The notes under the pieces are model-generated. The model was not told where the DNA came from. It did no database searches and saw nothing but the letters and a program-made list of their open reading frames with translations. This document shows, one piece after another, positions 5,568 to 24,300 of a DNA stretch of 64,000 bases. Every line of letters starts with the position of its first letter. Positions within the stretch are counted from its first letter, which is position 1. The stretch is from positions 4,711 through 68,710 of the forward strand of contig JAAYKL010000003.1 in assembly GCA_012522445.1 (NCBI GenBank), written 5' to 3'. Both the position numbers and the translations under genes were made by a program. This DNA is from Myxococcales bacterium. Lineage in GTDB: Bacteria; Myxococcota_A; Polyangia; JAAYKL01.

Positions 5568-5714
5568 GTTGTCTCCTGCAGGCCATGGGCCTGTCCGGTG
5601 GTGTGACTGAGTTGCCAGAATAAAACCAGGCACATCTTTGCGCAACTGCGCAGCAAGCCAGGCCAACATTTTGGTGGCACAGACAGCGCATGGGCGCAAC
5701 GGCCGAGGGTGGGT

Positions 5715-6218
5715 TCAAGATTCGCTGTGCACTTCGAGGAGGAAAAGACGCGCGCCGGCGATCCAAAACAGCAGCGCGGTCGGGCCGTGGTCGTGCGGTG
5801 AGAACGGTTTGTTCGGCGCATCGACTGGCACCAACTGGTGGAGAAAATGCGCCGCGTCCAGGGAGATGTTTTGCAGCGCCCCGGACAACAGCGCGTCCCC
5901 GGGGCCATGCGTTGCGAGCTCTTCGGCGGCTCCGTCGATGTGGTCCTGCAGCGCGGCCTGGTCGACGGGCAACACACGGGCTTGGGAGAGCCACGCGGCA
6001 GGCGCGAAATCGGCCATGGGATCGCGTTGCAGCGCGTAGGCCAACAAGGGCGCCCAGGGGGTGTCGACGTCGGGCAACAGCGACACCAGGCGCACATAAC
6101 TGGCCTGCCAGGTCGCCGCGTACAGGTCGCTCAACGCGTCGAAGCAAAGCGCCTCCGCTTCGTCGAGCGCTGACAATATGTCCGCCGCTGAGGGCGTGTC
6201 TGGGCCGGTCAAAATCAT
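5715..6218 (-). CDS. Hypothetical acidic cytoplasmic protein
   Basis: 167-aa ORF with protein-like composition. The overlapping plus-strand ORFs are Arg-rich junk. Confidence 0.4.
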   Translation of the reverse strand: MILTGPDTPSAADILSALDEAEALCFDALSDLYAATWQASYVRLVSLLPDVDTPWAPLLAYALQRDPMADFAPAAWLSQARVLPVDQAALQDHIDGAAEELATHGPGDALLSGALQNISLDAAHFLHQLVPVDAPNKPFSPHDHGPTALLFWIAGARLFLLEVHSES

Positions 6219-6410
6219 GACAATCCTCCCGTTTCAAGCAGGCCAAAGCCGCGACCAAACAAACAAAAAAGCGCGGCAAAAGCAACGCCATCTTCGAGCG
6301 CGTTCTCGCCGTCGCCAACCCGCTGCGCATCTCCGCTTGTGCAAACGGCCCGGCGCATTACATTGTCGTATGAACCGGCGCATTGCCCACTGCCCCAACG
6401 AACGAGCGTT

Positions 6411-7385
6411 ATGAAACCCGCCATCCAAATCACCCGCACCGGCCTCGTCATTGCCGAACGCCACCCCGCCCATCGCCTCGTCGCGCTCATCGACAGCGCC
6501 CTGCGCGGCGTGGGCCAGGTGATGTTTCAAGACAACACATACACCGGCCTCCTCTTTTTGGCGGGCCTGGGCGTCAACGCTCCCTTCATGGCGCTCTATG
6601 CCTTTGCGGGCGCCCTCATCAGCTCTGCCGTGGCGTCGTTGGCCGGCGCCGAAACCCAGCCCGTCCGCCAGGGGCTCTTCGGCTTCAACGGCGCGCTGGT
6701 GGGCATCGCCCTGCCGATGTTCCTCCCCATGACATCGCCCGCCATCTGGCTCTGGCTCGCTGGCGGTGCTGCGGCGTCCACCTTTGTTCTCGCCTTTCTC
6801 ATGCGCCTGCTGGCCCCGTGGAACGCCCCGGCCCTCACGGCGCCCTTTGTCTTCGTCACCTGGGCGGCCATCCTGTCGGTCCACGCCCTAGGACACATCC
6901 CCGCCGCCGCGCCGCCGCCCCCCGCCCTCGACATGCCCCTCTGGCAACTGCTGCCCCGCGGCCTCTTCAACGGCGTCGCCCAAGTATTCCTGCAGGAAAA
7001 CCCCGTCACCGGCGCCCTCTTCGCCCTGGGACTGCTCGTCAACGCCCCGGCCGCCAGCCTCGCCGCCCTGCTCGGATCCGCCAGCGGCCTGCTCATCGCC
7101 CTCGCCCTCCAGGTGCCCGCGCCCACATTGGCAGCGGGGATCTTCGGCTTCAACGGCGCGCTGGTGGCCATCGCCGTGGGTCACACCTTTGCCCCCAAGG
7201 CCCGCGGTGCCCTCTTCTTCGCGGCCGCCGCCACCATCCTCACCCCTTGGGTGCAGCTCGCCCTGAGCGCCGCCTTGGCCCCCGTGCACCTGCCGGTCTT
7301 TACCTTTCCGTTTGTGCTCACCACCTGGGTGTTCCTGCTGGGCATGCCGGTTTTCTTTGACAGGTCCAAGCCCCCCTCGGTATAG
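6411..7385 (+). CDS. Urea-transporter (UT / SLC14-like) family channel protein
   Basis: Two internal homologous halves, each with QV(M/F)(F/L)Q(D/E)N-x-TG-LF-x-GL-VNAP. LP-x-FT-x-PF-like motifs (HLPVFTFPFVLTTW, LTAPFVFVTW) resemble the UT signature. About 10 TM helices. ATG at 6411 (MKPAIQITRT). Confidence 0.6.
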   Translation: MKPAIQITRTGLVIAERHPAHRLVALIDSALRGVGQVMFQDNTYTGLLFLAGLGVNAPFMALYAFAGALISSAVASLAGAETQPVRQGLFGFNGALVGIALPMFLPMTSPAIWLWLAGGAAASTFVLAFLMRLLAPWNAPALTAPFVFVTWAAILSVHALGHIPAAAPPPPALDMPLWQLLPRGLFNGVAQVFLQENPVTGALFALGLLVNAPAASLAALLGSASGLLIALALQVPAPTLAAGIFGFNGALVAIAVGHTFAPKARGALFFAAAATILTPWVQLALSAALAPVHLPVFTFPFVLTTWVFLLGMPVFFDRSKPPSV

Positions 7386-7438
7386 TGCGACGCAATCAAT
7401 AATCCGTAGCACGAACGCTGTAACGAAAGGAAAGCACC

Positions 7439-7942
7439 ATGAATGCCTTGGGGAAATTTGCGCTGTTGGGCGCCCTGCTACTGGCCTTTTTGCCGGCCTG
7501 CACCGACGACGACGACGCGGCTGTGGCCTATGTCCAAATCAAAAACGACTTCAACAACCCCGAGATGGACTTCCAGCCCCCCTGGACCATCTGCCGCGCC
7601 GCCTTCCTGGACGCTGAAGTCGGCCTGCTGCGACAAGGCGACGAGAGCGACGAGGTCGAGGTGACCCCGGGATTGGGCCACGTGCTGATGGTCGCCGCCT
7701 GGGACGACCCCACCTGCGCCCCGGAAAACGCCCTGCCCATCGCCAGCCGCAACGAGGAAGAAGTCGTCGACGGCCAGCACCGCACCATCGCCATCAACTT
7801 GCCCAACCACCAGGGGCCCTGTCCCCCCGAGGGCGTCGCCCCCATCCCCGAAGACCTCTACGAGCGCATCCGGGCGCTGTGGCCCGAGTTTGCATTTAAG
7901 CCCTATGCCGAACGCACCGAAAACGCGCAGTGCCTCGACTGA
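7439..7942 (+). CDS. Lipoprotein, hypothetical
   Basis: Signal peptide plus lipobox MNALGKFALLGALLLAFLPAC followed by TDDDD. 167 aa. Confidence 0.5.
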   Translation: MNALGKFALLGALLLAFLPACTDDDDAAVAYVQIKNDFNNPEMDFQPPWTICRAAFLDAEVGLLRQGDESDEVEVTPGLGHVLMVAAWDDPTCAPENALPIASRNEEEVVDGQHRTIAINLPNHQGPCPPEGVAPIPEDLYERIRALWPEFAFKPYAERTENAQCLD

Positions 7943-8444
7943 TCGCCTGGGGCGGCGTCGTTTTGGGCGTCGCGCGGGGCGCTGTCTGAACGCTCTCCTG
8001 CTCCTGTTCTCGCCCCTGGTTCTGCTGGCGGGTTGCGACCTCGGGTATCCCGAGCTCATCGTCGTCAACCAAACCGACGACACCATCCAACTGCGCAACA
8101 TCAGCTTCAACGGCTGCGTCTTCCCCGGCGTGCTGCCCTACGGCGAGGCCACGTCTCCCTTGCGCTGCCTGCCGGGAAAAGAGCCGGTGCGCTTCGAAAA
8201 ATTCGACGCCGCCAACTACTGCCGCGACCAGGCCAAGGACGCCACCGTCGACGGGGTCTGTCCCTGCGACGGCGAGCCCGATCCCACGCGCGCCGACAAG
8301 GGCCTCGTCAACCCGAAGCCCATGTGGTTCAACTACATGACCCGCACGCGCCATCGCCTCGATTACGGCGACCTCCGCGTCATCGAGATCACCCGCGACG
8401 AAATGGAACAGGACTTCTCCGTGGTGGGCCCCTATGGCCACTGA
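7890..8444 (+). CDS. Lipoprotein, hypothetical (Cys-containing)
   Basis: Long basic n-region, then LLLLFSPLVLLAGC lipobox. Overlaps the upstream gene by 52 nt and the downstream TBDT by 11 nt. Confidence 0.45.
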   Translation: MHLSPMPNAPKTRSASTDRLGRRRFGRRAGRCLNALLLLFSPLVLLAGCDLGYPELIVVNQTDDTIQLRNISFNGCVFPGVLPYGEATSPLRCLPGKEPVRFEKFDAANYCRDQAKDATVDGVCPCDGEPDPTRADKGLVNPKPMWFNYMTRTRHRLDYGDLRVIEITRDEMEQDFSVVGPYGH

Positions 8445-10362
8445 GCGCCCCATGACGCCCCGGTCCGGGCGCCCCTGTTTCCGGTACGGCCTGCTGCTGG
8501 CGTGTTGCGCGGCGCTCGCATTTCCCGCGCCGGCCGTGGCGGAGCCGAGCGAGACCGACAACGGCGAGACCGACAACGACAACGGCGAAACCGACGAGGA
8601 CCTCCCGTCTTTCGAGAGCGAAATCGTCGCGCGCCGTCCTTCGGGCGAGGACGTCACCCAGGCCACCACCCACATTGAGGGGCGCAAGCTCCGCGACAGC
8701 GCACGCCACACCACCCTTGAGGCCATCTCCCAGGAGTCGGCCGACGTCTATGTTTCGGGGCGCGGCGCCATTCACGGCGTCTCCAACGGCGCCTCGGGGG
8801 GCGTGCACATCCGCGGCTTAGGCGGCAGCCCCAACACGCAAATCCTGATCGTCGAAGACGGCGTGCCGGATTACCAAGGCATCTTCGGACACCCCATCCC
8901 CGACGCCTACGTGCCCTTTCTCCTCGACGACGCCCTGGTGCTCAAAGGGGGCGACTCGGTGCGCTACGGCACCAATGCCATGGGCGGGGTCATCGTGTTG
9001 CGCAGCCGTTGGCGCGAAACGGCGGGCTACGAACTCCACAACGACGCGGCTTACGGCAGCTACCGCACCCTGCGCGAGACCGCCGCCTTCCTCGGGCGCT
9101 TCGGCGCGTGGGATGTGGCGGGCGCGGTCCACGCCATGTCCACCGACGGACACCGCGACGGCGCTGGCGGCAGCAGCTTCATCACCCACGGCGCGGCGCG
9201 TTACCGCATTCGCCCCACGCTCTCCCTCACCGTGCGCAACAAGCTCGTGCACCTCAAGGGCGCCGACCCCGGACCGGCCTCCCACCCCACCCCGGACCAC
9301 TGGTTCGACGTGTGGCGCGACAACGCATCCCTGGGCCTCGACTGGGAGCACGGCAACGCGCACCTCGCCATCACGCCCTCTTTCAGCATCGGGGTGCACC
9401 GCCTCTACGACGGCTTTTACTCCGTCGACCACGCCACCGGCGGCAATGCGCAGCTCACCCTCACCCCGCACCGCTCCATCGAACTCCTCTTGGGCCTTAG
9501 CGCCGAACACACCGACGGCGAAGTGCGGGACCGCACCGCACAGGAGCGCACCCCGGTCCGCGGCCTCACCGATCTGTCGCACTACAACCAGCTCACCTTC
9601 GCGCCCTTCTCGGCGCTGCGCTTCGCGCTCGGCACCCGCGCGCTGTACAACACGCGCTACGGCTTCGAGCTGCTGTACAAGGGCGGCGCGAGCTGGCACC
9701 TCAGCGACCGCCTCTTCCTCCACACCCGCGTGGCGCGCAACTACCGCCAGCCCACCATCCGCGAACTCTACCTGCCCTTCCCCTCGGCCAACCCCGATCT
9801 CCGCCCCGAGATCGCCGTCACCTGGGACCTGGGCGCGGGCTACACATCGGCGCACTTCGACGCGTCCGCATCGGTGTATCGCACCCGGGCCGACAACCTC
9901 ATCAAGTATTTTGGCTTCTGGCCCAGCGCCGAGGTGGTGAACATCGGACACATCGAGATATGGGGCGTCGAGGGCTCCGTGGCCGCCAAAGACCTGGGCC
10001 CCTTCTCGGTGCAGCTCAGCGCCGACTGGCAAGACGTGGGCCGCTACACGCGTCAAAATCCGCGCGCCAAAATCAACTTCTCCGTCGACGCGGGGCACGA
10101 CTTCGGCCAGCACTTTTTGGGCGGCGGCATCAGCGGCGAGTGGGTGCACGGACTGTACATGGCCGACTACGCGCGCGAGCCCATCGACGACGCCTTTGCC
10201 ATGGACCTGTCTTTGCGCTACCGCTACACTTCGCCGGTGCGGGGCGTCGCGCTCGAGCCCTATCTCTTCTTGCGCAACTTCTTAAACCGGCAATACGCCT
10301 ATGTGGCCGATTATCCCATGCCGGGTTTTCACGCCCTGGCCGGGCTAAAAGTGGAACTATGA
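8434..10362 (+). CDS. TonB-dependent outer-membrane receptor
   Basis: Signal peptide, then an acidic ETDNGETDNDNGETDED linker. Plug-domain motifs VYVSGRG...GGVHIRGLGGSPNTQILIVEDGVP...VLKGGDSVRYGTNAMGGVIVLRSR. About 22-strand barrel-length C-terminus. Alternative start at 8452 (MTPRSGRP...). Confidence 0.8.
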   Translation: MATERPMTPRSGRPCFRYGLLLACCAALAFPAPAVAEPSETDNGETDNDNGETDEDLPSFESEIVARRPSGEDVTQATTHIEGRKLRDSARHTTLEAISQESADVYVSGRGAIHGVSNGASGGVHIRGLGGSPNTQILIVEDGVPDYQGIFGHPIPDAYVPFLLDDALVLKGGDSVRYGTNAMGGVIVLRSRWRETAGYELHNDAAYGSYRTLRETAAFLGRFGAWDVAGAVHAMSTDGHRDGAGGSSFITHGAARYRIRPTLSLTVRNKLVHLKGADPGPASHPTPDHWFDVWRDNASLGLDWEHGNAHLAITPSFSIGVHRLYDGFYSVDHATGGNAQLTLTPHRSIELLLGLSAEHTDGEVRDRTAQERTPVRGLTDLSHYNQLTFAPFSALRFALGTRALYNTRYGFELLYKGGASWHLSDRLFLHTRVARNYRQPTIRELYLPFPSANPDLRPEIAVTWDLGAGYTSAHFDASASVYRTRADNLIKYFGFWPSAEVVNIGHIEIWGVEGSVAAKDLGPFSVQLSADWQDVGRYTRQNPRAKINFSVDAGHDFGQHFLGGGISGEWVHGLYMADYAREPIDDAFAMDLSLRYRYTSPVRGVALEPYLFLRNFLNRQYAYVADYPMPGFHALAGLKVEL

Positions 10363-10363
10363 A

Positions 10364-10891
10364 ATGACGCGCCTATCCCCCAGAGAGCTCGCCTACTGCG
10401 GCATGTTTGGCGCCGCGGCCCTCTTGCTGCCGGTGCTCTTCCACCTCTTGCACCTGGGCCACATCTTCATGCCGATGTACCTGCCCCTGTGCGCGCTGCC
10501 CTTCTTCGTAGGTCCCTTGCCCGCCGCCAGCACCGCCCTCATCGTGCCCTTGCTCTCCGGCGCCGTCACCGGCATGCCGCCCTTCTTTCCGCCCATCGCC
10601 GTCTTCATGTCCCTGGAACTCTCGGCCATGGCGGCCCTGCTCTCGGCTCTGGCGCAGCGCTTTCCCAGGGCCAACGAGTGGCTCTTGTTGGTGCCGGTGT
10701 TGGTGCTGGGACGCGTGCTCTACGTCGCCCTCGTCTACCTCTTCTCGCTCTTCATCGAACTGCCGGCCGCGTTCATGGCGGGGCTCTCGTTCTTCGGCGG
10801 ATGGCCCGGTGTCGCCCTCATGATCGCCGTCATCCCGCCCTTGGCCCGCGCCAAGCGCCGCACCGCGACAAGCAAAAGGATCAACCCATGA
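10364..10891 (+). CDS. Small polytopic membrane protein, candidate ECF-transporter S (substrate-capture) component
   Basis: 175 aa with 5-6 hydrophobic helices. Starts 2 nt after the TBDT stop. Its stop overlaps the next start (ATGA). Confidence 0.5.
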   Translation: MTRLSPRELAYCGMFGAAALLLPVLFHLLHLGHIFMPMYLPLCALPFFVGPLPAASTALIVPLLSGAVTGMPPFFPPIAVFMSLELSAMAALLSALAQRFPRANEWLLLVPVLVLGRVLYVALVYLFSLFIELPAAFMAGLSFFGGWPGVALMIAVIPPLARAKRRTATSKRINP

Positions 10892-11490
10892 CCAAGCTCG
10901 CCTTCTTCAACGACCTGGCCGCCCGATGGGACGCCATGGAAGACCTCGACGCGCTGCTGCCCAAGCTGGGCGAAGCCTTTGTGCAACTGGGCGTGGGCCG
11001 AGATGAGATCGTCCTCGACCTGGGCTGCGGCACGGGCAACTTGACCGCGGCGTTGCTCGCCCACCTCTCCGATGAAGGGCGCGTCATCGCCACCGACATC
11101 TCGCCCGCCATGATCGCCTTGGCCGAACAAAAGATCACCGACCCGCGCGTGACCTGGTTGCTGGGAGACGCGCACCGGCTCTTTTGGCCCGGCGCCGCCT
11201 GCCACCGCGTGTTTGCCTATTCGGTCTGGCCGCACTTCGACGACCCGGCCCAGGTGGCCCGCGAGATCCACCGGACGCTCATGCCCGGCGGCGTGTTGCA
11301 CGTGTGGCACCTCATCTCCCGGCAGCAGGTCAACGACATCCACACCCACGCGAGTCCGGCCGTATGCGACGACCTGCTGGCCCCGCCCGACGAAACCGCC
11401 GCGCTGCTCGCCGAGGCAAACTTTCGCATCCTCCACGCCGGGGAGTCCGACAGCGACTACCTGGTCACCGCCCAAAAGCCCGCGCCCTAG
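10888..11490 (+). CDS. Class I SAM-dependent methyltransferase
   Basis: VLDLGCGTGNLTAAL (motif I), acidic D at the end of beta2, GGVLHVWH. Internal ATG within junk ORF 10489..11490. 4-nt ATGA overlap with the upstream gene. Confidence 0.75.
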   Translation: MTKLAFFNDLAARWDAMEDLDALLPKLGEAFVQLGVGRDEIVLDLGCGTGNLTAALLAHLSDEGRVIATDISPAMIALAEQKITDPRVTWLLGDAHRLFWPGAACHRVFAYSVWPHFDDPAQVAREIHRTLMPGGVLHVWHLISRQQVNDIHTHASPAVCDDLLAPPDETAALLAEANFRILHAGESDSDYLVTAQKPAP

Positions 11491-11497
11491 ACGCACC

Positions 11498-12259
11498 ATG
11501 CGCGCATCGGTTCACGACATCTGGGGCTCGGGACGCGGTTGGATAAGACGCGCTGCCCCCACCGCGCGCTTGCTCTGCGGCATCCTGTGCTTTGCGGCGT
11601 GCATGACGGCCACCGGCGGCACTTACAGCGGCGCGGCCTGCACCGCCGGCACCTGCCTGCTCTGGCTCGTCGCCTGTCGCCCGCCCCGCCAACTGCTGCT
11701 CGCCATTACCGCCCTGGGCCTCGCCTTGCTGCTCCCCTATTTTTTGCTGCTGCCCATCCTCCCCAACGCCCCGGCGCACCTCAGCGGCGACTGGTCGCGC
11801 GCCCTGTCCTTGCCCACCACCATCTTGCTGCGCGGCCTGGGCGGCATGCTCATCACGGCGGCCACCGCGTCGGCCCTCACCGTCACCGAGCTGCGCGAAG
11901 CCCTGTTGCGCCTGCCGGTGCCCAGCATGGTGTCGGCCATCCTGCTGCAAATCATTCACCAGAGCGCCACCCTCTATTACGAGACCCGTCAGATGGCCGC
12001 GGCCATGGCGGTGCGCGGTGCCACCTCGGGCGGTCGGGCGGCCCTGCGCATCCTCGTCTCGCTGCCCAGCGTGTGGATGCCGCGCATCATCGCCCGCGCC
12101 GATCGCGTAGGAGACGCCATGGAGCTGCGCGAATACCTCGCGCCCTTGCCCGCCGCGCCGTTGTCTCGCACGAAGAAACACATCGACATTTGGGTGCTGT
12201 GCGCCGCCGCCGCATGCCTCGTCACCGCCATCGCCTTGCGCGCCGCAGGGGTGCCATGA
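11498..12259 (+). CDS. Energy-coupling-factor transporter transmembrane (T) component, CbiQ/EcfT-like
   Basis: 254 aa. Hydrophobic segments with a conserved LRGLGGMLITAATASALTVTELREALLRLPVP-type coupling region. Confidence 0.65.
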   Translation: MRASVHDIWGSGRGWIRRAAPTARLLCGILCFAACMTATGGTYSGAACTAGTCLLWLVACRPPRQLLLAITALGLALLLPYFLLLPILPNAPAHLSGDWSRALSLPTTILLRGLGGMLITAATASALTVTELREALLRLPVPSMVSAILLQIIHQSATLYYETRQMAAAMAVRGATSGGRAALRILVSLPSVWMPRIIARADRVGDAMELREYLAPLPAAPLSRTKKHIDIWVLCAAAACLVTAIALRAAGVP

Positions 12260-12960
12260 CCCACGCGCTGCCCCAGGCCACCCTCTCGTTTCGCGGCGTC
12301 ACCGTGCACCGCGATCCGGGCGACACGCCGGTACTGCGCGACCTCTCTTTTGCCGTGGCCCCCAACGAGCGCGTGGCCCTGCTGGGGCTCAACGGCTCGG
12401 GCAAAACCACGTTGTTCGCCGCCGCCGCGGGCCTGCTGCCCCACGAAGGCGAGATCCACATCGACGGACAACGCCTAACCCGGCGCTCCTGCCAGGCCCT
12501 GCGCCGCCGCATGGGGTTCGTCTTCAACGTGCCCGAAGACCAACTGCTCTTTCCCACCGCCGTCGACGACGTGGCCTTTGGCGCAAGACGCCTGGGGCAG
12601 AGCGACGCCCAATCCCGCGATCGCGCCAGCGCGCTGCTCCATGAGCTGGGCATGCGAGACGCCCAAAACGTCCCGCTGCACCACCTCTCCCACGGGCAAA
12701 AACAACGCGTAGCCCTGGCCGGTGCCCTCATCGGCGATCCGGCGCTGCTGCTGCTCGACGAGCCCTCGGCGGGCCTCGATCCCCCGGGCAAGCGACTGCT
12801 GTGCGCGCAGCTAACGCAGTGCGACGCCGCCATGCTCATCGCCACCCATGACCTCGACTTTGCCGCCCGCATCTGCACGCGCTTCCTCATGCTCGACGGC
12901 GGGCGCATCGCGCACGACACGGCATTGGCCGACGACATTCGGCAGCGCTGGCAGTGGTAG
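12256..12960 (+). CDS. ECF / ABC transporter ATP-binding protein (A component)
   Basis: Walker A GLNGSGKTT, signature LSHGQKQRVALAGAL, Walker B LLLLDEP, H-loop ATHDL. ATGA overlap with the T component. Confidence 0.85.
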   Translation: MTHALPQATLSFRGVTVHRDPGDTPVLRDLSFAVAPNERVALLGLNGSGKTTLFAAAAGLLPHEGEIHIDGQRLTRRSCQALRRRMGFVFNVPEDQLLFPTAVDDVAFGARRLGQSDAQSRDRASALLHELGMRDAQNVPLHHLSHGQKQRVALAGALIGDPALLLLDEPSAGLDPPGKRLLCAQLTQCDAAMLIATHDLDFAARICTRFLMLDGGRIAHDTALADDIRQRWQW

Positions 12961-13019
12961 GCAGCGCGTCTTTTGCGGTGTGGTGCGGCGGTGCTACGCA
13001 GGGGTGATGTTGCGGGGTG

Positions 13020-15251
13020 TTAGGGCTTGCGCGAGAAGGTCATCCAGAGGCCGCGCCCGACGAAGAAGAGCAGGATGAGCGCCCCGGCGGCAAAGATGAT
13101 GTCGGGGCCGATGCGCAGATAGGCGAAGGTGCGGATGACCGGTCCGGCGGCGATTTCGGGGCTGCGGGCAAACCACATGCCCTCTTTTACCGCGTAGTAA
13201 AACTGGTAAAAACCCGACGGCACGAGGCTCACAAAAGTCATGAGGGCGAGGCCGCCGTTTAGGCCCCAGAAGCTCCACTTGAGCATGCGATCGGACCAGG
13301 CCTTTTGCGGCACGGTGCTGCGCATGGAGAAGAGCATGAGCGAAATGGCGAGCAAGCCGTAGACGCCGAAGAGGGCCGTGTGCGCGTGGATGGGCGTCGT
13401 GTTGATGCCCTGGATGTAATAGAGGGCGATGGGCGGGTTGATGAGAAAGCCGAAGACCCCGGCCCCGAGCATGTTCCAAAACGCCACCGATACGAAGAAG
13501 TAAATCGGCCATTTGTATGGGTTGTGCGCCAGGGTGCCCGCGGCGCGCAAGTTGTGCACCGCTTCGAAGCCCACCAAGGTGAGGGGCACGACCTCTAAGG
13601 CGGAGAACACCGCCCCCAGCGCGATGATGGGCGTGGGCGCCCCGGTCCAGTAGAGGTGGTGGAAGGTGCCGATGATGCCGCTGGCCAGGTACAGGAAGAC
13701 GCTGAAGTACACGGCCCGCAGGGCGAAGCGCGCCCCGACCACGCCGATGCGCACCAGCAAGAACGCCATGAACACCGTGGCGAACACCTCGAAGAATCCC
13801 TCGACCCACAGGTGCACCACCCACCAGCGCCAGTACTCGGCGTTGGAGAGGTGCGAGCCCTTTCCGTAGAGGAGCCCCACCATGTAGAAGGCGGGGATGG
13901 CGATGGCGCTGTAGAGCAAGAGGTGCGTGATGCCGCCGGCGTCTTTCTCGCTGGAGAGGGCGGGCTTAATGGCGCGCAGCACCAGCACGAGCCAGAAGAG
14001 CATGCCGACGATGAGCAGGAGCTGCCACACGCGGCCCAGCTCAATGTACTCGTAGCCTTGGTGCCCCAGCATGAAGCCGTCGCCGCCGAAGAGGCCCTGC
14101 ACCGACGCGTAGGTGCCGCCCAGGGCGCCGAGCACCACGATCACGATGGCGACGAGCAATCCCCACACCAGCTTGCCCTGGTGCTTGGGCTCGCGACCGA
14201 CGTAGGGGCCGATGAAGAGTCCCGCGGCGAGAAAACACGTGGCGATAAAGAAGACCGCGAGCTGCAGGTGCCAGGTGCGCACCGCGGCGTAGGGCAGGAT
14301 TTCGCCGATGGGGAAGCCGAAGAAGCTCGTGCCTTCGACGGTGAAGTGTCCGGTGATGGCGCCCATGCCGATTTGGGCGACGAAGAGCGCGATGGCGATG
14401 AAGAAGTAGGGCAAGGTGGCCTTTTGGCTCGGCGTAGGGGTGGGCTCGACAAAGGGGACGGACTCGGCTTTGTAGTCGTCCTCTTTGATGTAGCGCAGGT
14501 ACAAAAAGATGGCCAAGGCGATGACGAAGATGAGCACGATGACGCTGACGATGGACCAGATAACGCTGCCGGGCATGGGGTAGTTGCCCACCAGGGGATC
14601 GAAGGGCCAGTTGCTCGTGTAGGTGTAATCTTTATCGGGGCGCATGGTGCCGGCGGCCCAGGAGAGCCACGAGAAGAAGCTCGCGACGAGGCGTCCGTTT
14701 TCGTCGGTGTCTACGATGCCCGGCTGCAGGCCCATGTCGGAGTGCCCCTGCTGGAAGAGTTCGGTGTAGTAGCCGATGAGGTGCGCGTGGGCCTCGGCCT
14801 GAAACGCGGTAAACGTGAGGTGGCCGCTGCGCGCGTCATAGCGGTTGGTCTTTTGTTCCTCGGTGGCCAGGGCCGTGATTTTGGCGCGGGTGCCCACGTC
14901 GAGGGCTTCGAGATCATCGTGCGTGAAGGCGGCGGCTTCGGCGGCGGTTTTGCCCAGGTGTCGCGCGGCCACAAACAGGCCCATGCGGTGCAGGTAATCC
15001 GCCGACCAGTCCGGGGCGAGATAGGCGCCGTGTCCCCAGATGGAACCCATGTGCTGACCGCCGCGGCTGTAGAAGTAATTTTGCCCGTCGATGACGTCTT
15101 TTTCGGTGTAAACGATTTGCCCGCTTTCGGAGATGACGTCGCGGGGAATGGGGGGCTTCTCGCGGTCCATGAGGTAGCCGCCAAAGAGGAGCACCCCAAA
15201 CGAAAGTCCCAATACAAACAACATGATGGCTCTGGTGCGGGTGCGTTCCAT
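13020..15251 (-). CDS. norZ: Quinol-dependent nitric-oxide reductase, single-subunit qNOR (NorB/NorZ-type, heme-copper oxidase superfamily)
   Basis: 743 aa. N-terminal TM plus periplasmic extension fused to a 12-TM NorB core (HLWVEGFFEVFATVF, multiple His ligands). Confidence 0.85.
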   Translation of the reverse strand: MERTRTRAIMLFVLGLSFGVLLFGGYLMDREKPPIPRDVISESGQIVYTEKDVIDGQNYFYSRGGQHMGSIWGHGAYLAPDWSADYLHRMGLFVAARHLGKTAAEAAAFTHDDLEALDVGTRAKITALATEEQKTNRYDARSGHLTFTAFQAEAHAHLIGYYTELFQQGHSDMGLQPGIVDTDENGRLVASFFSWLSWAAGTMRPDKDYTYTSNWPFDPLVGNYPMPGSVIWSIVSVIVLIFVIALAIFLYLRYIKEDDYKAESVPFVEPTPTPSQKATLPYFFIAIALFVAQIGMGAITGHFTVEGTSFFGFPIGEILPYAAVRTWHLQLAVFFIATCFLAAGLFIGPYVGREPKHQGKLVWGLLVAIVIVVLGALGGTYASVQGLFGGDGFMLGHQGYEYIELGRVWQLLLIVGMLFWLVLVLRAIKPALSSEKDAGGITHLLLYSAIAIPAFYMVGLLYGKGSHLSNAEYWRWWVVHLWVEGFFEVFATVFMAFLLVRIGVVGARFALRAVYFSVFLYLASGIIGTFHHLYWTGAPTPIIALGAVFSALEVVPLTLVGFEAVHNLRAAGTLAHNPYKWPIYFFVSVAFWNMLGAGVFGFLINPPIALYYIQGINTTPIHAHTALFGVYGLLAISLMLFSMRSTVPQKAWSDRMLKWSFWGLNGGLALMTFVSLVPSGFYQFYYAVKEGMWFARSPEIAAGPVIRTFAYLRIGPDIIFAAGALILLFFVGRGLWMTFSRKP

Positions 15252-17399: not shown

Positions 17400-20300
17400 G
17401 TGCGCAAGCGCTGGATTCAGATATTGCTGGTCCTGTTGTCGCTCATCGCCGCAACGGTGATCGGGGCGCTGATCTTTGTCACCTCGCAGACGGGTTCGCA
17501 GTGGCTCTCCCGGCGCCTGGACGAAGGCCTGGAGAAGGAGAGCGGCCTGAGCGTGGCCTTTTCGGACATCGACATCCACTGGCTGCCGCCGCGCCTCATC
17601 GTGCGCGATTTGCAGGTGGGCGATCGGCAGAAGCGCCTGCAGTGCACGATAGCCGACGCCGAGATCTCCCTGGCGCCCTTGCCCTTGCTCCGCGGTGCGC
17701 TGCGCGTCGAGGAACTCTACCTGGGTTCTCCGGAGTGCACGGCGGAGCTCGACAGCGCGGCCTTCGACAAATTCTTCGCCGACGACGGCACCTCCGCCCA
17801 GGCCGAGAAGCTCGACTTGTCTCAACTGCCCAACTTCGAGGTCTTCGCCCTGAGCGAGGGGAATTTCAAAATCGACGTGCGCGACAAAGAGACCCAGCGC
17901 CTGGTGCAAATCGAACTCAACGGCCTCTCCCTGGACGTCACCAGCAGCGAACAAGACAAGGCCAAGCGCATCGAGGTGCGCGCCCTGCTGCGGCATATGA
18001 AAGCCGGGCTCCACACCCCCGAAGAACCCGCGCTGCAAGAAGAGCTGCGCGACCTGGAGTGGCGCATGTCCCTCAGCGAGGACGGCATCGACTTTCGCAC
18101 GCTGTCCGCCGAAGTCAGCGGCATTGCGCTGCGGGCCCGCGACGTGTACCTGCCCTTGCCTCTCAAGGACGAGCGCGAGATCAAGGCCGCCTTTGTGCAC
18201 GTGGACGGTCCCCTGGACGTGCTGAACCGCCTGCCCTTGGGGCTGCCGAGGATCAGCGGTGCGGCGGGTTTCAAGGGCCAGGCCACCGTTCGCCCCACTG
18301 CGGAGTCGCCGGTGTTTTCGGCCCGCGGGAGCATCTGGCTGCGAGATGGCCAGGTCGACGACTTTGTCATCGGTGACTTGGCGGCCACGGTGGTGGCGTC
18401 CCAGCGCGGGGTTTCCTTTGGCGCCCTGAAGCTCGTCAGCGCGCGCGGCGAGATCACCGGCGAGGGTGAGGTGGCCTTTGACGCACAGCAGTCCGTGTTC
18501 CTCGACCTGCACCTGCGCGACATCGAGCTGGCCCAACTGCTGGAGAACGTCACCCTGGACAACCCCTGGGTGATGCTGCGGATCAGCGGCGACGTGAAGG
18601 TGGAGGGGCGGCTCAACGATCTGGCGCTCCAGACCCAAGTGCGCCTCAACGCCCAAGACCTCCGGGTGTTTGATCGCAGTTGGCAGAACCCCCGGCGGGA
18701 CCAAGTGCTGCACCTCAAGCAAGCGGGGGTCACGGGCCGCCTCCACATCACCGACAAGGCGTTGACCGCCCAAGATCTGCAGGTGCGCACCGCGAACTCG
18801 GCCCTGAGCGTGGGCATGAAGTTTGGCTTTGGCGAGCAGGACGGCTGGCAAGTGGGCGTCCGTTCGAAGCAGACCGACTTGGCGGACCTGGGCGAAATCA
18901 TCGGCCTGAAAATCGCCGGGCAGGGCGCGCTGGAAACCCAGATCATCTCCCACCGCTACAACGCGCCGCGGGTGCGGGGCAGCCTGTCGATGTCGCGCTT
19001 TGCGCTGGCGGGACTTCCCTTTCACAACGTGCGCGCCAAGGTGAGCTTTGACCGGGACATCCTGTCCTTCTCTGATCTGCAAATCGAGACACCCAAGAGC
19101 CGCTACGGCACCGAAGAGCTGCGCATCGACCTGCGCGGGAAGACGCCGCGCATCGAGAGCCGCGTCGCCATTGAGCAAGCGGCGGTGGAGGACCTGCTGC
19201 GCACCTTTGGCGTAGATGCCAAGCCCTTTGGCGCGCCGGCGGGGAACATCAATGGCACCGTGGAGGTCGCGTGGCAGGGCACCCCCGACAGCCTGAACAT
19301 CACCGCTGACCTGGCGCACTCCGGGCTCACCTTGTTCGGCGAAGTCTTTGGCGCGGGCAGCGCGGTCTTCGACGTGGATGGCGGCGACATTCGCATTCAG
19401 CGCTTCGACATGCGCAAAGGGCCGGGCAAGCTCTCCCTCAGCGGCAGCATCCAACGCGACAATGCCCTGAACCTCATGCTGGACGCGGGGAACATCGCCA
19501 TTGAAGACATCGTCTTTCCCGCGGTGAGCGACTTGGAGCTCCAGGGTCGCGGCCACCTCTTTGCCGCCATTGAAGGCACCCTGGACGAGCCCCGGGGCGT
19601 GCTGGTCTTGCAGCTCCGCAAACTGCGGCGCCATGAATTCGACATCGGCACGGCCGCCCTCAACTGCGACATCGTGGGCCTGGGCCTGGACTGCACCGGG
19701 GACGTGGCCAACGCACGCCTCAAAGTGAAGACGGGGCGCGTCGACTTCGACAGGCAGCACTTTGACCTAAAGGCCGAGGTGAACAACATGGACCTGGCGC
19801 CGCTGTTTTACGATGCCGCACCCAAAGACGCCGCGTCGGCGAAGGTGTCGGGGCAACTGGATTTGTCGGGCACTTGGCAGGGGCAGACGGACATCAACGG
19901 CGACATACAACTGTCCAAGGTCGCGCTGCGCTACCAGCAATTTCGGCTGCACAACCAGGCCCCCGTGCACATCCGCGTCCAGTCCAGCGAGATGCAGATC
20001 GTCCGCACGCCCTTCGGCGGAGAGGACGTCGCCTTGCAGGTAGAGGGGCATGTCTCGCCCCAGCACATGAACATCAAGCTCGACGGCGACATGGACTTGC
20101 GCGGCGCGGCGGCCCTCGCACCGGCGTTGCGCAAGAGCAGCGGCCACCTGGGGTTTCAGCTCTCGGTCTTCGGTCCCTGGTCGCAGGTGGGCATCCAGGG
20201 CAACGCGCAGATCGACAAGGCCAGCGCGCACATCGACGGCCTGCCCGACCCCATCACCGACATCAACGGGCGCATCGACTTCAACGGGCGCAAGGCCTAC

Positions 20301-21383
20301 TTCCGCGAGATCTCGGCCCGGAGCGCTGGGGGCATCATCGACATCGACGGCCAGGTGTCGCTGTCGGGCATGGAGATCGAGGACTACCGTTTCCGCGGGT
20401 TTTTGACCCACTACCGCGTCTCCCTGATGGACGGCCTGCTGCTGCGCATCTCCACGGCCAAAGAGGGCCTCATCATCACGCCGGATCCCCAACGGCAGTT
20501 GCCCCACATCACCGGTGACATCGAGGTCTCCGACTTCCGCTACACCCAAGACATCCGCATCATCGAGGTATCGGACCTGGCCTTGGACCGGCTGGCGGGC
20601 AAGAAGATGCGCGCCCACACCCCCAAGATTTTCGACCGCAAAAAGGACAGCCTGACCTACGACATCCGCTTGCACGGCGATCGCAATCTGCTGCTGCGCA
20701 ACAACTTGGTCGACGCCAGCTTGCGCATCGACGACAAGGAAGAACCCCTGCGCCTCGTCGGCAGCAACCAAACCTACGGCTTCTTGGGGCGGGTGTTCGC
20801 CCAGAAGGGCAGCGTGCGCTTTGCCGGCAAGACCTTTGATATCCGCGACGCCCACGTCACCTTTCGCGACGCCATGCGGCCGGACAACCCGGAGTTTCGC
20901 GTCACCGCCGACGTCGAGGTGCGGGACTGGCGCGTGACGGTGATCGCCGAGGGCACCGTGGAGGAATACCAGGTGCGTTTAAGCGCGTCGCCCTACCTCT
21001 CTCACGAAGACGTGGCCTTCTTGCTGCTCACCGGCATGACGCGATCCGAGCACGCGCAAAACAAGAGCCAGGGGTTGTCGGGATCGCTGGCGCCCATCTT
21101 GGGCAATGTGGGCGGCGGCATCATCCCGGTGGAGGTGTCGCTGTACAGCGAGTATTCGGAGAAGGCCGGCACCGATACCACGCGGGTGGCCTTGGGACGC
21201 CGCATCACGAAGGACATTTGGGTGCAGCTCGCCGCCAGCCTGGGCGAAGACCGGGAGCTGGAGGGCACGATTGACTACCGCATTAATGATAATTTTTCGC
21301 TCTCGTTTGGGTACGATAACACCCGGGATTCTAGCCAGGTGGGGAACTTCGGTCTCGACCTGAAGTTTCGATTGGAGTTTTGA
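17400..21383 (+). CDS. tamB: Translocation-and-assembly-module subunit TamB (AsmA-like/DUF490 giant periplasm-spanning protein)
   Basis: 1327 aa. N-terminal signal anchor MRKRWIQILLVLLSLIAATVIGALIFV. Long beta-rich body. C-terminal DUF490-like ...NFGLDLKFRLEF. GTG start. Confidence 0.75.
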   Translation: MRKRWIQILLVLLSLIAATVIGALIFVTSQTGSQWLSRRLDEGLEKESGLSVAFSDIDIHWLPPRLIVRDLQVGDRQKRLQCTIADAEISLAPLPLLRGALRVEELYLGSPECTAELDSAAFDKFFADDGTSAQAEKLDLSQLPNFEVFALSEGNFKIDVRDKETQRLVQIELNGLSLDVTSSEQDKAKRIEVRALLRHMKAGLHTPEEPALQEELRDLEWRMSLSEDGIDFRTLSAEVSGIALRARDVYLPLPLKDEREIKAAFVHVDGPLDVLNRLPLGLPRISGAAGFKGQATVRPTAESPVFSARGSIWLRDGQVDDFVIGDLAATVVASQRGVSFGALKLVSARGEITGEGEVAFDAQQSVFLDLHLRDIELAQLLENVTLDNPWVMLRISGDVKVEGRLNDLALQTQVRLNAQDLRVFDRSWQNPRRDQVLHLKQAGVTGRLHITDKALTAQDLQVRTANSALSVGMKFGFGEQDGWQVGVRSKQTDLADLGEIIGLKIAGQGALETQIISHRYNAPRVRGSLSMSRFALAGLPFHNVRAKVSFDRDILSFSDLQIETPKSRYGTEELRIDLRGKTPRIESRVAIEQAAVEDLLRTFGVDAKPFGAPAGNINGTVEVAWQGTPDSLNITADLAHSGLTLFGEVFGAGSAVFDVDGGDIRIQRFDMRKGPGKLSLSGSIQRDNALNLMLDAGNIAIEDIVFPAVSDLELQGRGHLFAAIEGTLDEPRGVLVLQLRKLRRHEFDIGTAALNCDIVGLGLDCTGDVANARLKVKTGRVDFDRQHFDLKAEVNNMDLAPLFYDAAPKDAASAKVSGQLDLSGTWQGQTDINGDIQLSKVALRYQQFRLHNQAPVHIRVQSSEMQIVRTPFGGEDVALQVEGHVSPQHMNIKLDGDMDLRGAAALAPALRKSSGHLGFQLSVFGPWSQVGIQGNAQIDKASAHIDGLPDPITDINGRIDFNGRKAYFREISARSAGGIIDIDGQVSLSGMEIEDYRFRGFLTHYRVSLMDGLLLRISTAKEGLIITPDPQRQLPHITGDIEVSDFRYTQDIRIIEVSDLALDRLAGKKMRAHTPKIFDRKKDSLTYDIRLHGDRNLLLRNNLVDASLRIDDKEEPLRLVGSNQTYGFLGRVFAQKGSVRFAGKTFDIRDAHVTFRDAMRPDNPEFRVTADVEVRDWRVTVIAEGTVEEYQVRLSASPYLSHEDVAFLLLTGMTRSEHAQNKSQGLSGSLAPILGNVGGGIIPVEVSLYSEYSEKAGTDTTRVALGRRITKDIWVQLAASLGEDRELEGTIDYRINDNFSLSFGYDNTRDSSQVGNFGLDLKFRLEF

Positions 21384-21388
21384 CGGCG

Positions 21389-24300
21389 ATGCACGGGCAG
21401 CCACAGCAACAACGGCACCAGCCAAGAGGGCGACAAACGCCGGTTCGTCCGCAACGGCAGCGGCGCGGGGCGCGTTGTCGTGGGGCGGTGCGGTGCGTTG
21501 TCGCGGCGCTGTGTGTCGTCGCGGTGTCGTTGGCGATGCCGGTGTCGGGCTTGTCTGCGGAGCCCCAGGTTCCCCCCATGCCCCCCGAACTGGTGGAGCT
21601 CTTCGATTGGCTCGACACGCCCCTGCCCGGTGAGGACGAGGTCACCCCGGACGCGCTGCCGGATGGGGTTGCGTCGCTGCTGGGACTGCGCCTGCAGAAG
21701 GTGGAGATGCGCCGGCCCCAGGCGGGCTTCGACCCGGTGGCGGACATGCGCTTGACGCCGGGAACGGTGCTGAACCGCCACGTCATTCGCCAGGCCGTGC
21801 TGCGCCTGTGGGAGAGCGGCAAGTACCGCGACATCCAGCTCTACGGGCAGCGCACCGCCGACGACAAGGCCGTGCTGCAGCTCGAAGTGACGCCCCTCTA
21901 CCGCATCGGCCGCGTCGCCATCTCGGGCAACGCCGCCCTGGACGAAGCCGTCATCCGGCGCGCCATCGGCTACACCCCGGGGCTCCCCGTCAACCCGGAC
22001 ACCCAGCAATTGATCCGGTGGCGCGAGCGCCTGCTCTCCACCTATCAACTGCGCGGCTACCACCAGACCACCGCGGTGCTCCGGTTGGAGACCACCGAAT
22101 CTCCGGGCACCCTGGCGCTCATCGTCACCATTGCGGAAGGGGCGCCCGATGTGTACACCCGCGTGCAGTTGCTGGGCCTGCCTCCGGAGCTTGACGCCGA
22201 CGCGCTGCGGCACCAAGCGTCGCTGCGCCGTCACATTCTCCGGGACGCCGAACGCGTCGAGGAGGGGTTGAAGCAGTTGCGCGAAGCCCTATCCGATGCG
22301 GGATATCTCGACGCCCAGATCGTCGAAACGCCCCTGGAAAAACCCGTGGGTCCCAACCGCTTTGAGTTGCTGGTACGGCTCGACACCGGGCTGCGCACCG
22401 CGGTGCAGTACGCGGGGCTGCGGCGGTTGTCGCCCAACGAACTCACCGAGGAGCTGAAGCGCCGCGATGTGCTGCGCACCACGCCGGACGCCCTGCACGC
22501 GGCCGCGCTCGTCCTGCGCCAATACGCCCGCAAAAATGGACTGCTCCACGCCACGGTGCGCGCCGAACGCCTGTGTCACGTTTCGGAACAGCGGAGCTTG
22601 CGCGTGAGCGCGGCGCAATCTTGTCCCGCCAAGAGCAACGGGCAAACAATCGTTTTTCATGTGGCCGAGGGCGCGCCGGTGACCGTGGACGCCATCCGCA
22701 TTGAGGGCAATTTGTTTTTGACGGAGGTGCAAATCGCCACCGAGGTGTACGCGTGGATGGCGGAGCGCAACAGCCGCCGCAGCACCCTGAACCGCTTTTC
22801 GAGCCAGAGCCTAGACGACATCTCGCTGCGCTCCCGGAGCGCGCAATCTGCGCTGCCGCCGCGGGGCACCCGCATCACCAACGACATCGGCGACCGCACC
22901 TACGTGCCCGAACTCTACCAAGAGGTGACGCGTTACATCGGCGGTCTCTACCAGGAGAAGGGCTTCCTCAAATCGGCGGTGTCCCACGACTGTCACCTGG
23001 ATTCTCGCCCGGCCTTGCAGCACAATCACCGCACCTATCGACCGTTTCGATTAGACGACGTCGGCTTCTCCGGGGGTGATCGCGAGGCGCCCTGTCTCTT
23101 CATCTCCGCAGACGGGCAGTCGCTCATCGCCGTGTTTCGCGTCGAGGAGAACACCCAAACCCTGCTGAGCGACATCCACTGGCACGGCCACGAAGACGGC
23201 GTCTTTTCTGCGGACGACCTGCAGCGCATCGGCGGGCTCAACAACGGGGAGCCCTATAATGAATACAATCTGCGCCAGGCGGTGGAGAACGTCCGCCGCG
23301 CCTACGCCGAAAAGGGCTACCTCTTCACCGACATCGCGTGGAACGCCGAGGTCTCGGAGGACGAAAGGCACGCCGCCGCCACCATCGAGATCCGCCAGGG
23401 GCCGCAGGTTATTTTGCAGGACATTATCATCCACTCCGAGCAGACGCGGCAGCGCCTCATCGCCAACAACTTGGGCCTGAAGGTGGGCGCGCCCATTACG
23501 CCGTCGGCCCTGAGCAATGCCGAGCGGCGCCTGATGGACATGGGGCTGTTCAGCTCCGCCACCGTGAAGATGCAATCGGCCCAAACCGTGTCCGCCGAGA
23601 AGATCGTCGAGGTCACCGTGGTGGACCGCAAACCGCAATACCTGGAGCTGCGCGGCGGCTTTGCCACCGAGGAGGGTGTGCGCGCGGGCTTTCAATACGG
23701 GCACCGCAACATCATGGGCTTGGGCCTCGGCTTTCGCCTGATTTTGCGCGGCAACTACCGCGTGTGGTTCCTGGGACCGGAAGGCGCCGAGTTCGAGCGC
23801 GATCTCGAGCAGCGCTTCGACCGCTACAACAGAACCGCCAAGGACCCCATCCCGCGCACCTTCTCCAAGCTGGAGTGGCGCTTCTTGACCGGCCTCAACA
23901 GCCGCATCATTCCGGGGACGCGGGGCTTCCTCGGTGTTGGCGCCGACGTGTTGTTTCGCAACCTCAACCGCCGCGGTTACAGCGCCCTCACCATGAGCCC
24001 GGCCCTGCGGTTCCACACCAATTTCCCGCGCGTCTTTCCCGTCGAGCTGCGCACGGCGGTGGAGGGCAGCATTGTCATCCCCTCTACGCTTGAGCGCAGC
24101 ACCGCCAGCAATGTCCTGGATCAATTCTTTCGCATGCCTTCGGGGCGCGCCTACTTCTGGGTGTCCACCCTCACCCTGAGCCTCGACCTGCGCGACAACT
24201 CCCTCAACCCCAAGAGCGGCTTCATGGCGCGGCTAAACGCCGATTATGTCCAGACCATCGGCGACGACCAAAACCGCACCATCGAAACCGTGGACGAGGC

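Follow-up and report, generated by a model that had tools for sequence, protein, structure and literature searches.

We analysed a 64-kb stretch of contig JAAYKL010000003.1 (64,000 nucleotides; this whole stretch is called the window below) from a metagenome-assembled genome (MAG) of a Myxococcales bacterium living in an anaerobic digester. At positions 7439-12960, seven consecutive genes encode two orphan lipoproteins (Lp1 and Lp2), a TonB-dependent receptor (TBDT), the S, T and A components of an energy-coupling factor (ECF) transporter and, between S and T, a methyltransferase that uses S-adenosylmethionine (SAM). These seven genes are a widespread, previously undescribed module, known so far only from uncultured bacteria. 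We think it rather probable that they form a single nickel-repressed operon and that this operon provides a complete route for nickel acquisition through two membranes. The parts of this reading are not equally firm. We are fairly confident that expression is repressed by nickel-NikR and that the system imports nickel across both membranes, and distinctly more tentative about the idea, which we lean somewhat against, that the nickel travels as a complex whose ligand is modified by the methyltransferase at the exit.

To place the window genes in context, we compare their proteins with all open reading frames (ORFs) of 80 loci from species-level genomes of about ten phyla, every one a MAG; the phyla include Myxococcota, Acidobacteriota/Aminicenantes, Planctomycetota, Verrucomicrobiota, Kiritimatiellia, Lentisphaerae, relatives of Fibrobacterota, Ignavibacteriota and Bdellovibrionota. 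Counts downstream of the S gene refer to the 64 loci, and counts upstream to the 57 loci, that have enough sequence on the respective side. Downstream, the order S, methyltransferase, T, A is kept, with the methyltransferase present in 60/64 loci (94%), T in 63/64 and A in 62/64. Upstream, Lp1, Lp2 and an orthologous TBDT precede S in 30/57 loci, always all three together (30/30); another 12 loci carry a different TBDT at this place and 15 carry none. The arrangement of these seven genes is far beyond chance; dozens of genomes, spread over different phyla, repeat it in the same order. An earlier, sequence-only reading of this DNA had singled out three features as atypical, among them the pairing of a TBDT with an ECF transporter and the methyltransferase sitting between S and T, and had proposed to look for a conserved neighbourhood: these two are conserved features rather than accidents, and the synteny from S to A extends over the roughly ten phyla at 60 to 63 of 64 loci.

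The module is common and seems to have a long history. In the protein collection the S family comprises 751 homologous clusters, and at least 249 species-representative genomes encode S; the habitats of the carriers are anoxic, digesters and sediments being examples. Locus L099 holds a remote version of the whole module, with a perfect NikR box followed by a TBDT, a 164-aa S, a methyltransferase of 33% identity, T and A, and the architecture is therefore old. In one complete 2.9-Mb Bdellovibrionota genome (L007), exbB-exbD-tonB follow directly after the module (12683-14359), so that this locus encodes a full energised outer-membrane route. In the literature we found no account of the S family or of an ECF nickel system containing a methyltransferase.

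It is the regulatory evidence that points to nickel, and not to the small nitrogenous or vitamin-like substrate that the earlier reading had proposed. When the other ORFs neighbouring the module are clustered, one family dominates, a ribbon-helix-helix protein of 137-142 aa found in 28 loci of the clustering set; a nikR-like gene is directly adjacent in 27 of the 80 genome loci. Five sampled neighbours pass the NCBIfam NikR equivalog NF003381 at 156-189 bits (cutoff 105), and they retain the nickel-ligand pattern ...QH..H...HxH...C. NikR is the only recurrent regulator near the module. Its operators are inverted repeats of 27-28 bp located in the promoter region, and for delta-proteobacteria the box GTGTTAC-[N13/14]-GTAACAC has been derived (Rodionov et al., 2004; PMC545781). 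With up to two mismatches allowed, this box has 20 matches in the 1.2 Mb of the 80 loci, compared to 4.9 +/- 2.6 in shuffled sequences, and 16 of the 20 are concentrated at the 5' ends of the modules, which make up 5% of this sequence (P ~6e-18). The boxes are located ahead of Lp1, of the alternative TBDT or of S, and some of them are in loci where nikR is not adjacent. Perfect boxes are present in L017, L035 and the remote module of L099, and a box with one mismatch precedes the TBDT of the fusion locus L094. A mismatch-tolerant search for repeats with 7-nt arms and a 13-14-nt spacer finds NikR-type inverted repeats in front of Lp1; of the 35 loci led by Lp1, most have one, usually about 40-65 nt from the start codon, and the repeats take several forms (GTGTTAC/GTAACAC, GTAGCAC/GTGCTAC, the reversed orientation and ATATTAC/GTAATAT).

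The window itself has a repeat of this type, GTGCGAC-N14-GTAGCAC, at 7385-7412. Six of seven arm positions are self-complementary, the repeat is located at -54 from the Lp1 ATG, and it begins inside the -10 hexamer of a candidate sigma-70-like promoter, TTGACA-18-TATAGT (7357-7386, + strand; a consensus match only, 11 of 12 positions), which overlaps the 3' end of the preceding gene and lies 53 nt ahead of the Lp1 ATG. A scan of 7.3 kb returns this one promoter-like site, with 0.5 expected from shuffles. By position and geometry only, the repeat is a credible candidate for a NikR operator. A seed-based finder reports no exact inverted repeats in the leader of Lp1 or in that of the gene before it; the imperfect repeat emerges only when mismatches are tolerated.

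This preceding gene (6411-7385, + strand, 324 aa) encodes a urea-transporter-family channel (UT), and the earlier reading had placed it at the head of one operon of eight genes, 6411-12960. The eight co-directional genes are real: all are + strand ORFs with ATG starts and a third-position GC content (GC3) of 0.84-0.90, and the last seven are conserved as described above. The family assignment of UT is also clear, with PF03253 at E 2.5e-79 spanning profile positions 1-289 of 292, a match to dvUT (3k3f) at E 4.8e-54, and 231.7 bits against the Yut-type equivalog TIGR03441, under its cutoff of 274.6. It is the membership in the operon that does not hold. None of the 80 genome loci has a UT gene in the 10 kb to either side of S (0/80), and the contigs in which UT adjoins the module (L001-L004) all belong to the organism of the window itself. 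Because of this absence, together with the promoter-like site before Lp1, the operon is the seven genes 7439-12960, and UT is a separate, lineage-specific neighbour. As the earlier reading had stated, urease genes are missing nearby; we find no urease motifs in the 64-kb window.

We now consider the transporter. The S gene (10364-10891, + strand) encodes the 175-aa membrane protein for which the earlier reading had left open whether it is an ECF S component, CbiM-like or something else. Its AlphaFold (AF2) model has a mean predicted local distance difference test score (pLDDT) of 90.3, and in a Foldseek comparison with the PDB the top 18 matches are all S components (RibU, FolT, ThiT, BioY, PanT), with template-modelling (TM) scores of 0.42-0.70; structures of CbiM or NikM are absent from the top 50. 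In sequence, PF12822 stays under its cutoff (E 0.0033), no NCBIfam family matches, and a profile built from 30 S sequences matches no PDB sequence. Since the fold matches are all S components and the sequence searches come back without a match, the protein is, judged by its model, a genuine ECF S component of a new sequence family. Across phyla the 30 aligned sequences have a mean identity of 66%, which is unusually conserved; the conserved residues include H27, M38, M71, E85 and R117, and one loop is rich in Met and His.

The other two components were correctly recognised as ECF proteins by the earlier reading, and both are CbiQ/CbiO-type in Pfam and NCBIfam searches. The T component (11498-12259, + strand) is a CbiQ-family protein with PF02361 above the Pfam cutoff (E 6.5e-11) and a sub-cutoff 29 bits against the NCBIfam equivalog TIGR02454; its length is 253 aa rather than the 254 aa given earlier, the ATG being at 11498 and the codon at 11495 being ACC. 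The A component (12256-12960, + strand, 234 aa) is a CbiO/EcfA-type ABC ATPase (PF00005, E 7e-32) whose best NCBIfam matches, cbiO TIGR01166 (161.7 bits) and ECF_ATPase_1/2, are all sub-cutoff, and its gene is the single ATPase gene of the module. S, T and A are thus encoded together, a dedicated or group I organisation, in the window and in 60 to 63 of the 64 related loci. By S fold, CbiQ-type T and CbiO-type A, we assign the three proteins to an ECF transporter, for which ATP-dependent import by an S-T-A2 complex is predicted.

How closely is the methyltransferase tied to this transporter? The window enzyme (10888-11490, + strand, 200 aa) is a class I SAM methyltransferase, with Methyltransf_11/25 among several Pfam families above cutoff, and an exhaustive search with it returns 48 representatives at E < 1e-30. 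Among the best 150 matches are five full-length fusions of S and methyltransferase (P0248, P0268, P0299, P0301 and P0369; 375-393 aa), and both halves are confirmed by profiles: that of S aligns to the first 165-170 residues (E 3e-90 to 4e-26), that of the methyltransferase to the last 195 (E 5e-92 to 4e-43). The five belong to separate 50%-identity clusters, come from real assemblies and lie in TBDT-led loci. Like its presence in 94% of the loci and its ATGA overlap with S, these fusions tie the methyltransferase functionally to the transporter. Both termini of six-helix S components are cytoplasmic, and the fusions therefore would place the enzyme where the cargo is released. A further apparent fusion, of methyltransferase and T (P0284), was set aside as a probable frameshift with a junk linker between its halves. 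The family also occurs in other combinations: P0261 (394 aa, 40% identity to the window enzyme) is fused to an N-terminal acetyltransferase domain of the GNAT type, P0323 has an extra C-terminal domain, and in L094 a DeoC-family aldolase gene (2027-2746) is inserted between the TBDT gene and the gene for an S-methyltransferase fusion.

The placement of the enzyme in a subfamily, which the earlier reading had suggested as a check, ends at Pfam class I, and no curated NCBIfam family is reached. DVU_1556 comes closest in NCBIfam, with 63.7 bits where 155 are required; BioC, UbiE/MenG, CpaM and ArsM score below it, and ten remote relatives also reach no family. BioC and Tam, two carboxyl O-methyltransferases, are among the named families nearest to the enzyme, both matches falling far under the cutoffs, and the best PDB match is a generic sugar O-methyltransferase (E 4e-11). 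Motif I of the SAM-binding Rossmann fold, D44-x-GCGTGN, and the acidic D70 after strand 2 are invariant in 77 methyltransferase sequences, and even remote members keep W14-D15, the SAM motif DxGCGTGN, H116, H141, R145, N/D149, H152 and D162. Catalysis is predicted to be retained, because the SAM motif is strictly conserved. One methyltransferase of 32% identity stands in another nickel setting, where the neighbouring genes encode a His-rich protein (24 His), a Ni/Co permease of the NicO family, a regulator of the Fur family and an ABC system resembling NikABC. The His-rich protein, 89 aa long and made up largely of HxH repeats, is encoded between the methyltransferase relative and the NicO gene (L097 6958-7227; L098 3020-3289) and is a candidate nickel storage protein or chaperone, and possibly a substrate of the methyltransferase.

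On the outer-membrane side, the TBDT (8434-10362, + strand, 642 aa) has Plug and barrel domains (PF07715, E 1.5e-11; PF00593, E 3.5e-21) and falls in no substrate-defined NCBIfam subfamily, its weak matches to heme/hemoglobin, B12 and siderophore receptors scoring 15-68 bits against cutoffs of 224-1200. Lp1 (7439-7942, + strand, 167 aa) and Lp2 (7905-8444, + strand, 179 aa) each have a lipobox, that of Lp2 being LAGC, and searches of both against Pfam (E <= 10) and PDB profiles return noise only. In Lp1, four Cys are conserved and the motif NHQGPCPPEGV is invariant. Lp2, whose family counts 303 members, conserves C88, H96, C106 and a C119-x-C121 motif, and its carboxy-terminus is invariant (...EQDFSVPGPYGH, ending PGPYGH). 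The AF2 model of Lp2 is a small beta-sandwich (pLDDT 83.7) that matches no PDB fold above a TM score of 0.32. We also considered the two lipoproteins as paralogues of each other and rejected this (BLASTP E 0.2). They are orphan families, and the module contains no CbiN-like gene. Because they occur strictly together with the TBDT, we infer that Lp1 and Lp2 capture cargo or hand it over at the receptor.

Putting these components together suggests the following mechanism. Under nickel limitation, NikR would leave an operator that overlaps the promoter, and the TBDT, aided by Lp1 and Lp2, would bring nickel through the outer membrane, most likely bound to a small ligand rather than free. The inner membrane would then be crossed by the dedicated, group I-like ECF transporter, with its novel S, CbiQ-type T and presumably homodimeric CbiO-type ATPase. 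Docked at the cytoplasmic side of S, and covalently fused to it in some lineages, the methyltransferase would methylate the incoming ligand or, less likely, a protein partner, and this methylation may render import irreversible, free the metal, or both. What speaks for a ligand-bound cargo that is modified at the exit is the TBDT with its dedicated lipoproteins, the vitamin-type fold of S with H27, M38, M71, E85 and R117, and the position of the enzyme. In its most specific form the proposal is one of transport-coupled methylation, in which a donor atom of the nickel ligand is methylated at the exit of S, the chelate is destroyed, nickel is released and uptake becomes irreversible; the ligand could be a nickelophore, or a nickel-thiolate or nickel-carboxylate species from anoxic, sulfidic habitats. 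This specific form we regard as doubtful, a good deal less probable than nickel import as such.

The alternative that deserves the most attention is that the system imports bare Ni2+ (or Ni/Co), and that the methyltransferase either acts on a protein, for instance on His residues in a loop of a transporter or in a His-rich nickel chaperone or storage protein, or is itself the first cytoplasmic acceptor of nickel, by means of its conserved His/Asp cluster. The methyltransferase relative beside NicO and the 89-aa protein with 24 His in HxH repeats fit this, the residues H116, H141, H152, D162 and N/D149 kept in remote members are a plausible metal site, and about 4 of the 64 loci have no methyltransferase, from which it follows that transport itself does not need the enzyme. 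Against it, a bulkier cargo is suggested by the TBDT with two dedicated lipoproteins and by an S fold that is of the vitamin rather than the CbiM/NikM type; strict conservation of the SAM-binding motif speaks for retained catalysis; the fusion to S puts the enzyme exactly where cargo exits; and the ECF-type loci encode no His-rich protein. We consider the bare-ion scheme unlikely, though far from negligible. It is improbable, in our judgement, that the cargo is not nickel at all, with NikR control amounting to cross-regulation of an importer for Co, Zn, Fe or a metabolite required under nickel scarcity. In its favour, a NikR signal is lacking in about half of the loci, the neighbours in some loci include ZnuA/ABC-3, FeoB and DtxR- and ArsR-type regulators, and a loop of S is rich in Met and His; yet NikR is the sole recurrent regulator, its box stands directly before the first gene even in remote variants, and the methyltransferase family is independently associated with NicO and NikABC-like genes. 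Still less probable is that nickel is obtained by piracy of a nickel-containing or other metal tetrapyrrole, such as F430 or a corrinoid from habitats rich in methanogens, with the methyltransferase esterifying or otherwise modifying the macrocycle. ECF S components can carry tetrapyrroles, as ECF-CbrT does, the carriers come from anoxic habitats, and both the weak receptor matches to the heme/hemoglobin and B12 families and the kinship of the enzyme to BioC and Tam go in this direction, but these similarities are generic and far under the family cutoffs, there is no B12 riboswitch, and the module contains no macrocycle-degrading enzyme. Least credible of all, and to our minds hardly tenable, is the UT-headed operon for a nitrogenous or vitamin-like compound. 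It can draw on the co-directional genes, on the mere 53 nt between UT and Lp1 with no convincing terminator, and on an S fold like that of vitamin S components; set against these are the absence of UT from the 80 loci, the promoter-like site and NikR-type repeat before Lp1, the association with NikR genes and boxes, and the lack of a riboswitch. For the latter, which the earlier reading had proposed to look for upstream of UT, a scan of the whole window at Rfam gathering thresholds finds only a tRNA, and a permissive scan of 5600-6600 gives only chance matches of miRNA type.

Several observations weigh against the nickel operon and its ligand-modifying enzyme and should be kept in mind. The operator candidate in the window has three mismatches to GTGTTAC-N14-GTAACAC, and because about one such match is expected per 64 kb by chance, only the position and geometry of the repeat are telling. 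There is no nikR gene within the 64-kb window, roughly half of the loci lack both a nikR next to the module and a box that can be recognised, and all carriers are uncultured MAGs. NikR regulons may also hold genes that are not nickel transporters, for example that of an Fe-only hydrogenase (PMC545781). PF01891 does not match S at E <= 0.01, and S shows neither similarity to the Ni/Co S components CbiM and NikM nor an obvious multi-His/Cys metal site. With regard to the enzyme, no evidence in the analysis points to a methyl acceptor; a relative that sits beside the ion permease NicO indicates that ligand modification may not be its role, and the NicO association together with the conserved His/Asp cluster would equally fit a protein-directed or nickel-accepting one.

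Should the enzyme act on the cargo, import coupled to methylation would be seen here for the first time, a mechanism resembling group translocation that is not known for any metal, and the methylated product would reveal the natural nickel ligand. We see a real chance that a new principle, metal import coupled to methylation, is at work in the module. Nickel limits hydrogenases, carbon monoxide dehydrogenase/acetyl-CoA synthase (CODH/ACS) and urease where conditions are anoxic and rich in sulfide, as they are in anaerobic digesters, and how it passes the outer membrane, and in which chemical form, is still an open question even for FrpB4 of H. pylori. To this question the module brings a new S family, two new lipoprotein families and a methyltransferase that evolution has repeatedly joined to the transporter. 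For annotation we offer a simple rule, the gene order S-methyltransferase-T-A together with a NikR box.

The genes of the operon are closely packed. Lp1 and Lp2 overlap by 38 nt when Lp2 starts at ATG 7905, the start used by public gene calls, and the 52-nt overlap reported earlier is obtained only with a TTG start at 7890. Lp2 and TBDT overlap by 11 nt, or are 7 nt apart with an alternative TBDT start at 8452 (636 aa). A single nucleotide separates TBDT from S and 7 nt separate the methyltransferase from T; the S/methyltransferase and T/A junctions are ATGA overlaps, the first of which couples the methyltransferase translationally to S.

Other features of the window lie outside the operon. 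Upstream, a divergent gene at 5715-6218 (- strand, 167 aa, GGAGG ribosome-binding site, no Pfam family) is seen only in contigs of the same organism and has a 192-bp intergenic region in common with UT. At the other end, a gene at 13020-15251 (- strand) is convergent with the operon, 59 nt separating the two ends; its 743-aa NorB-like product has NorB_cytochrome_c-like and COX1 domains and is, for this Myxococcales MAG from a digester, a candidate quinol-type nitric oxide reductase. Farther downstream, a few kb from the module, at 17400-24874 (+ strand), a TamB-like gene of 1327 aa is immediately followed by a BamA/Omp85-like gene of about 1100-1160 aa, which appear to be an outer-membrane biogenesis pair. 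Very large ORFs are found at 52720-57981 (- strand, 1753 aa), 58067-63904 (- strand, 1945 aa) and 31424-34030 (+ strand, 868 aa), and in public gene calls the 1737-1753-aa and 868-aa products have no Pfam family. The segment 1001-2000, near acetolactate synthase genes, has a GC content of 0.49, compared to about 0.60-0.69 across most of the first 20 kb, and may be intergenic or foreign.

How does the module compare to systems already known? The closest are NikMNQO/NikKMLQO and CbiMNQO, which are likewise dedicated ECF transporters with a CbiQ-type T and a single gene for a CbiO-type ATPase, and which share the adjacency of NikR genes and the operator type GTGTTAC-N13/14-GTAACAC (PMC545781); as with NikK and NikL of NikKMLQO, extra envelope components are encoded alongside. 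The module differs from NikMNQO and CbiMNQO in that S is not CbiM/NikM (no PF01891, and a different N-terminus) and has a fold closest to the vitamin-type S components, in that there is no N component, in the SAM methyltransferase between S and T that is sometimes fused to S, and in the TBDT and two orphan lipoproteins fixed in half of the loci. In CbiM and NikM it is the N-terminus that binds the metal. A TBDT repressed by NikR is not in itself unprecedented, since FrpB4 of H. pylori is one, with the nickel form that it recognises still open and a nickelophore proposed (PMC3856676). FrpB4, like FecA3 and NikH, was compared by description and is alike in being a TBDT under NikR control; unlike FrpB4, the receptor of the module is translationally linked to its own ECF transporter and two lipoproteins.

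With the vitamin-type ECF systems (RibU, ThiT, FolT, BioY, PanT, CbrT) the module has in common the S fold, the size of about 175 aa and the architecture, but there is no membership at the sequence level, the transporter is dedicated rather than shared, and a metal sensor takes the place of a riboswitch. The Cnt systems for staphylopine and pseudopaline, with the TBDT CntO, also combine a TBDT and an inner-membrane importer for a metal-ligand complex under metal-responsive repression; here, in contrast, there are no genes for metallophore biosynthesis or export in or near the module, which has no enzyme other than the methyltransferase associated with its importer. Vectorial modification is familiar from sugar phosphorylation by the phosphotransferase system (PTS) and from FadD-coupled acylation, and the eukaryotic METTL9 methylates His of metal transporters. 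To these the likeness would be one of concept only, an enzyme at the cytoplasmic exit or methylation that tunes HxH sites, with no homology. By analogy, then, the module would work like NikMNQO joined to a receptor of the FrpB4 type, with three protein families and an enzyme added to both, and it departs from the former in the S component, which is not of the NikM/CbiM family.

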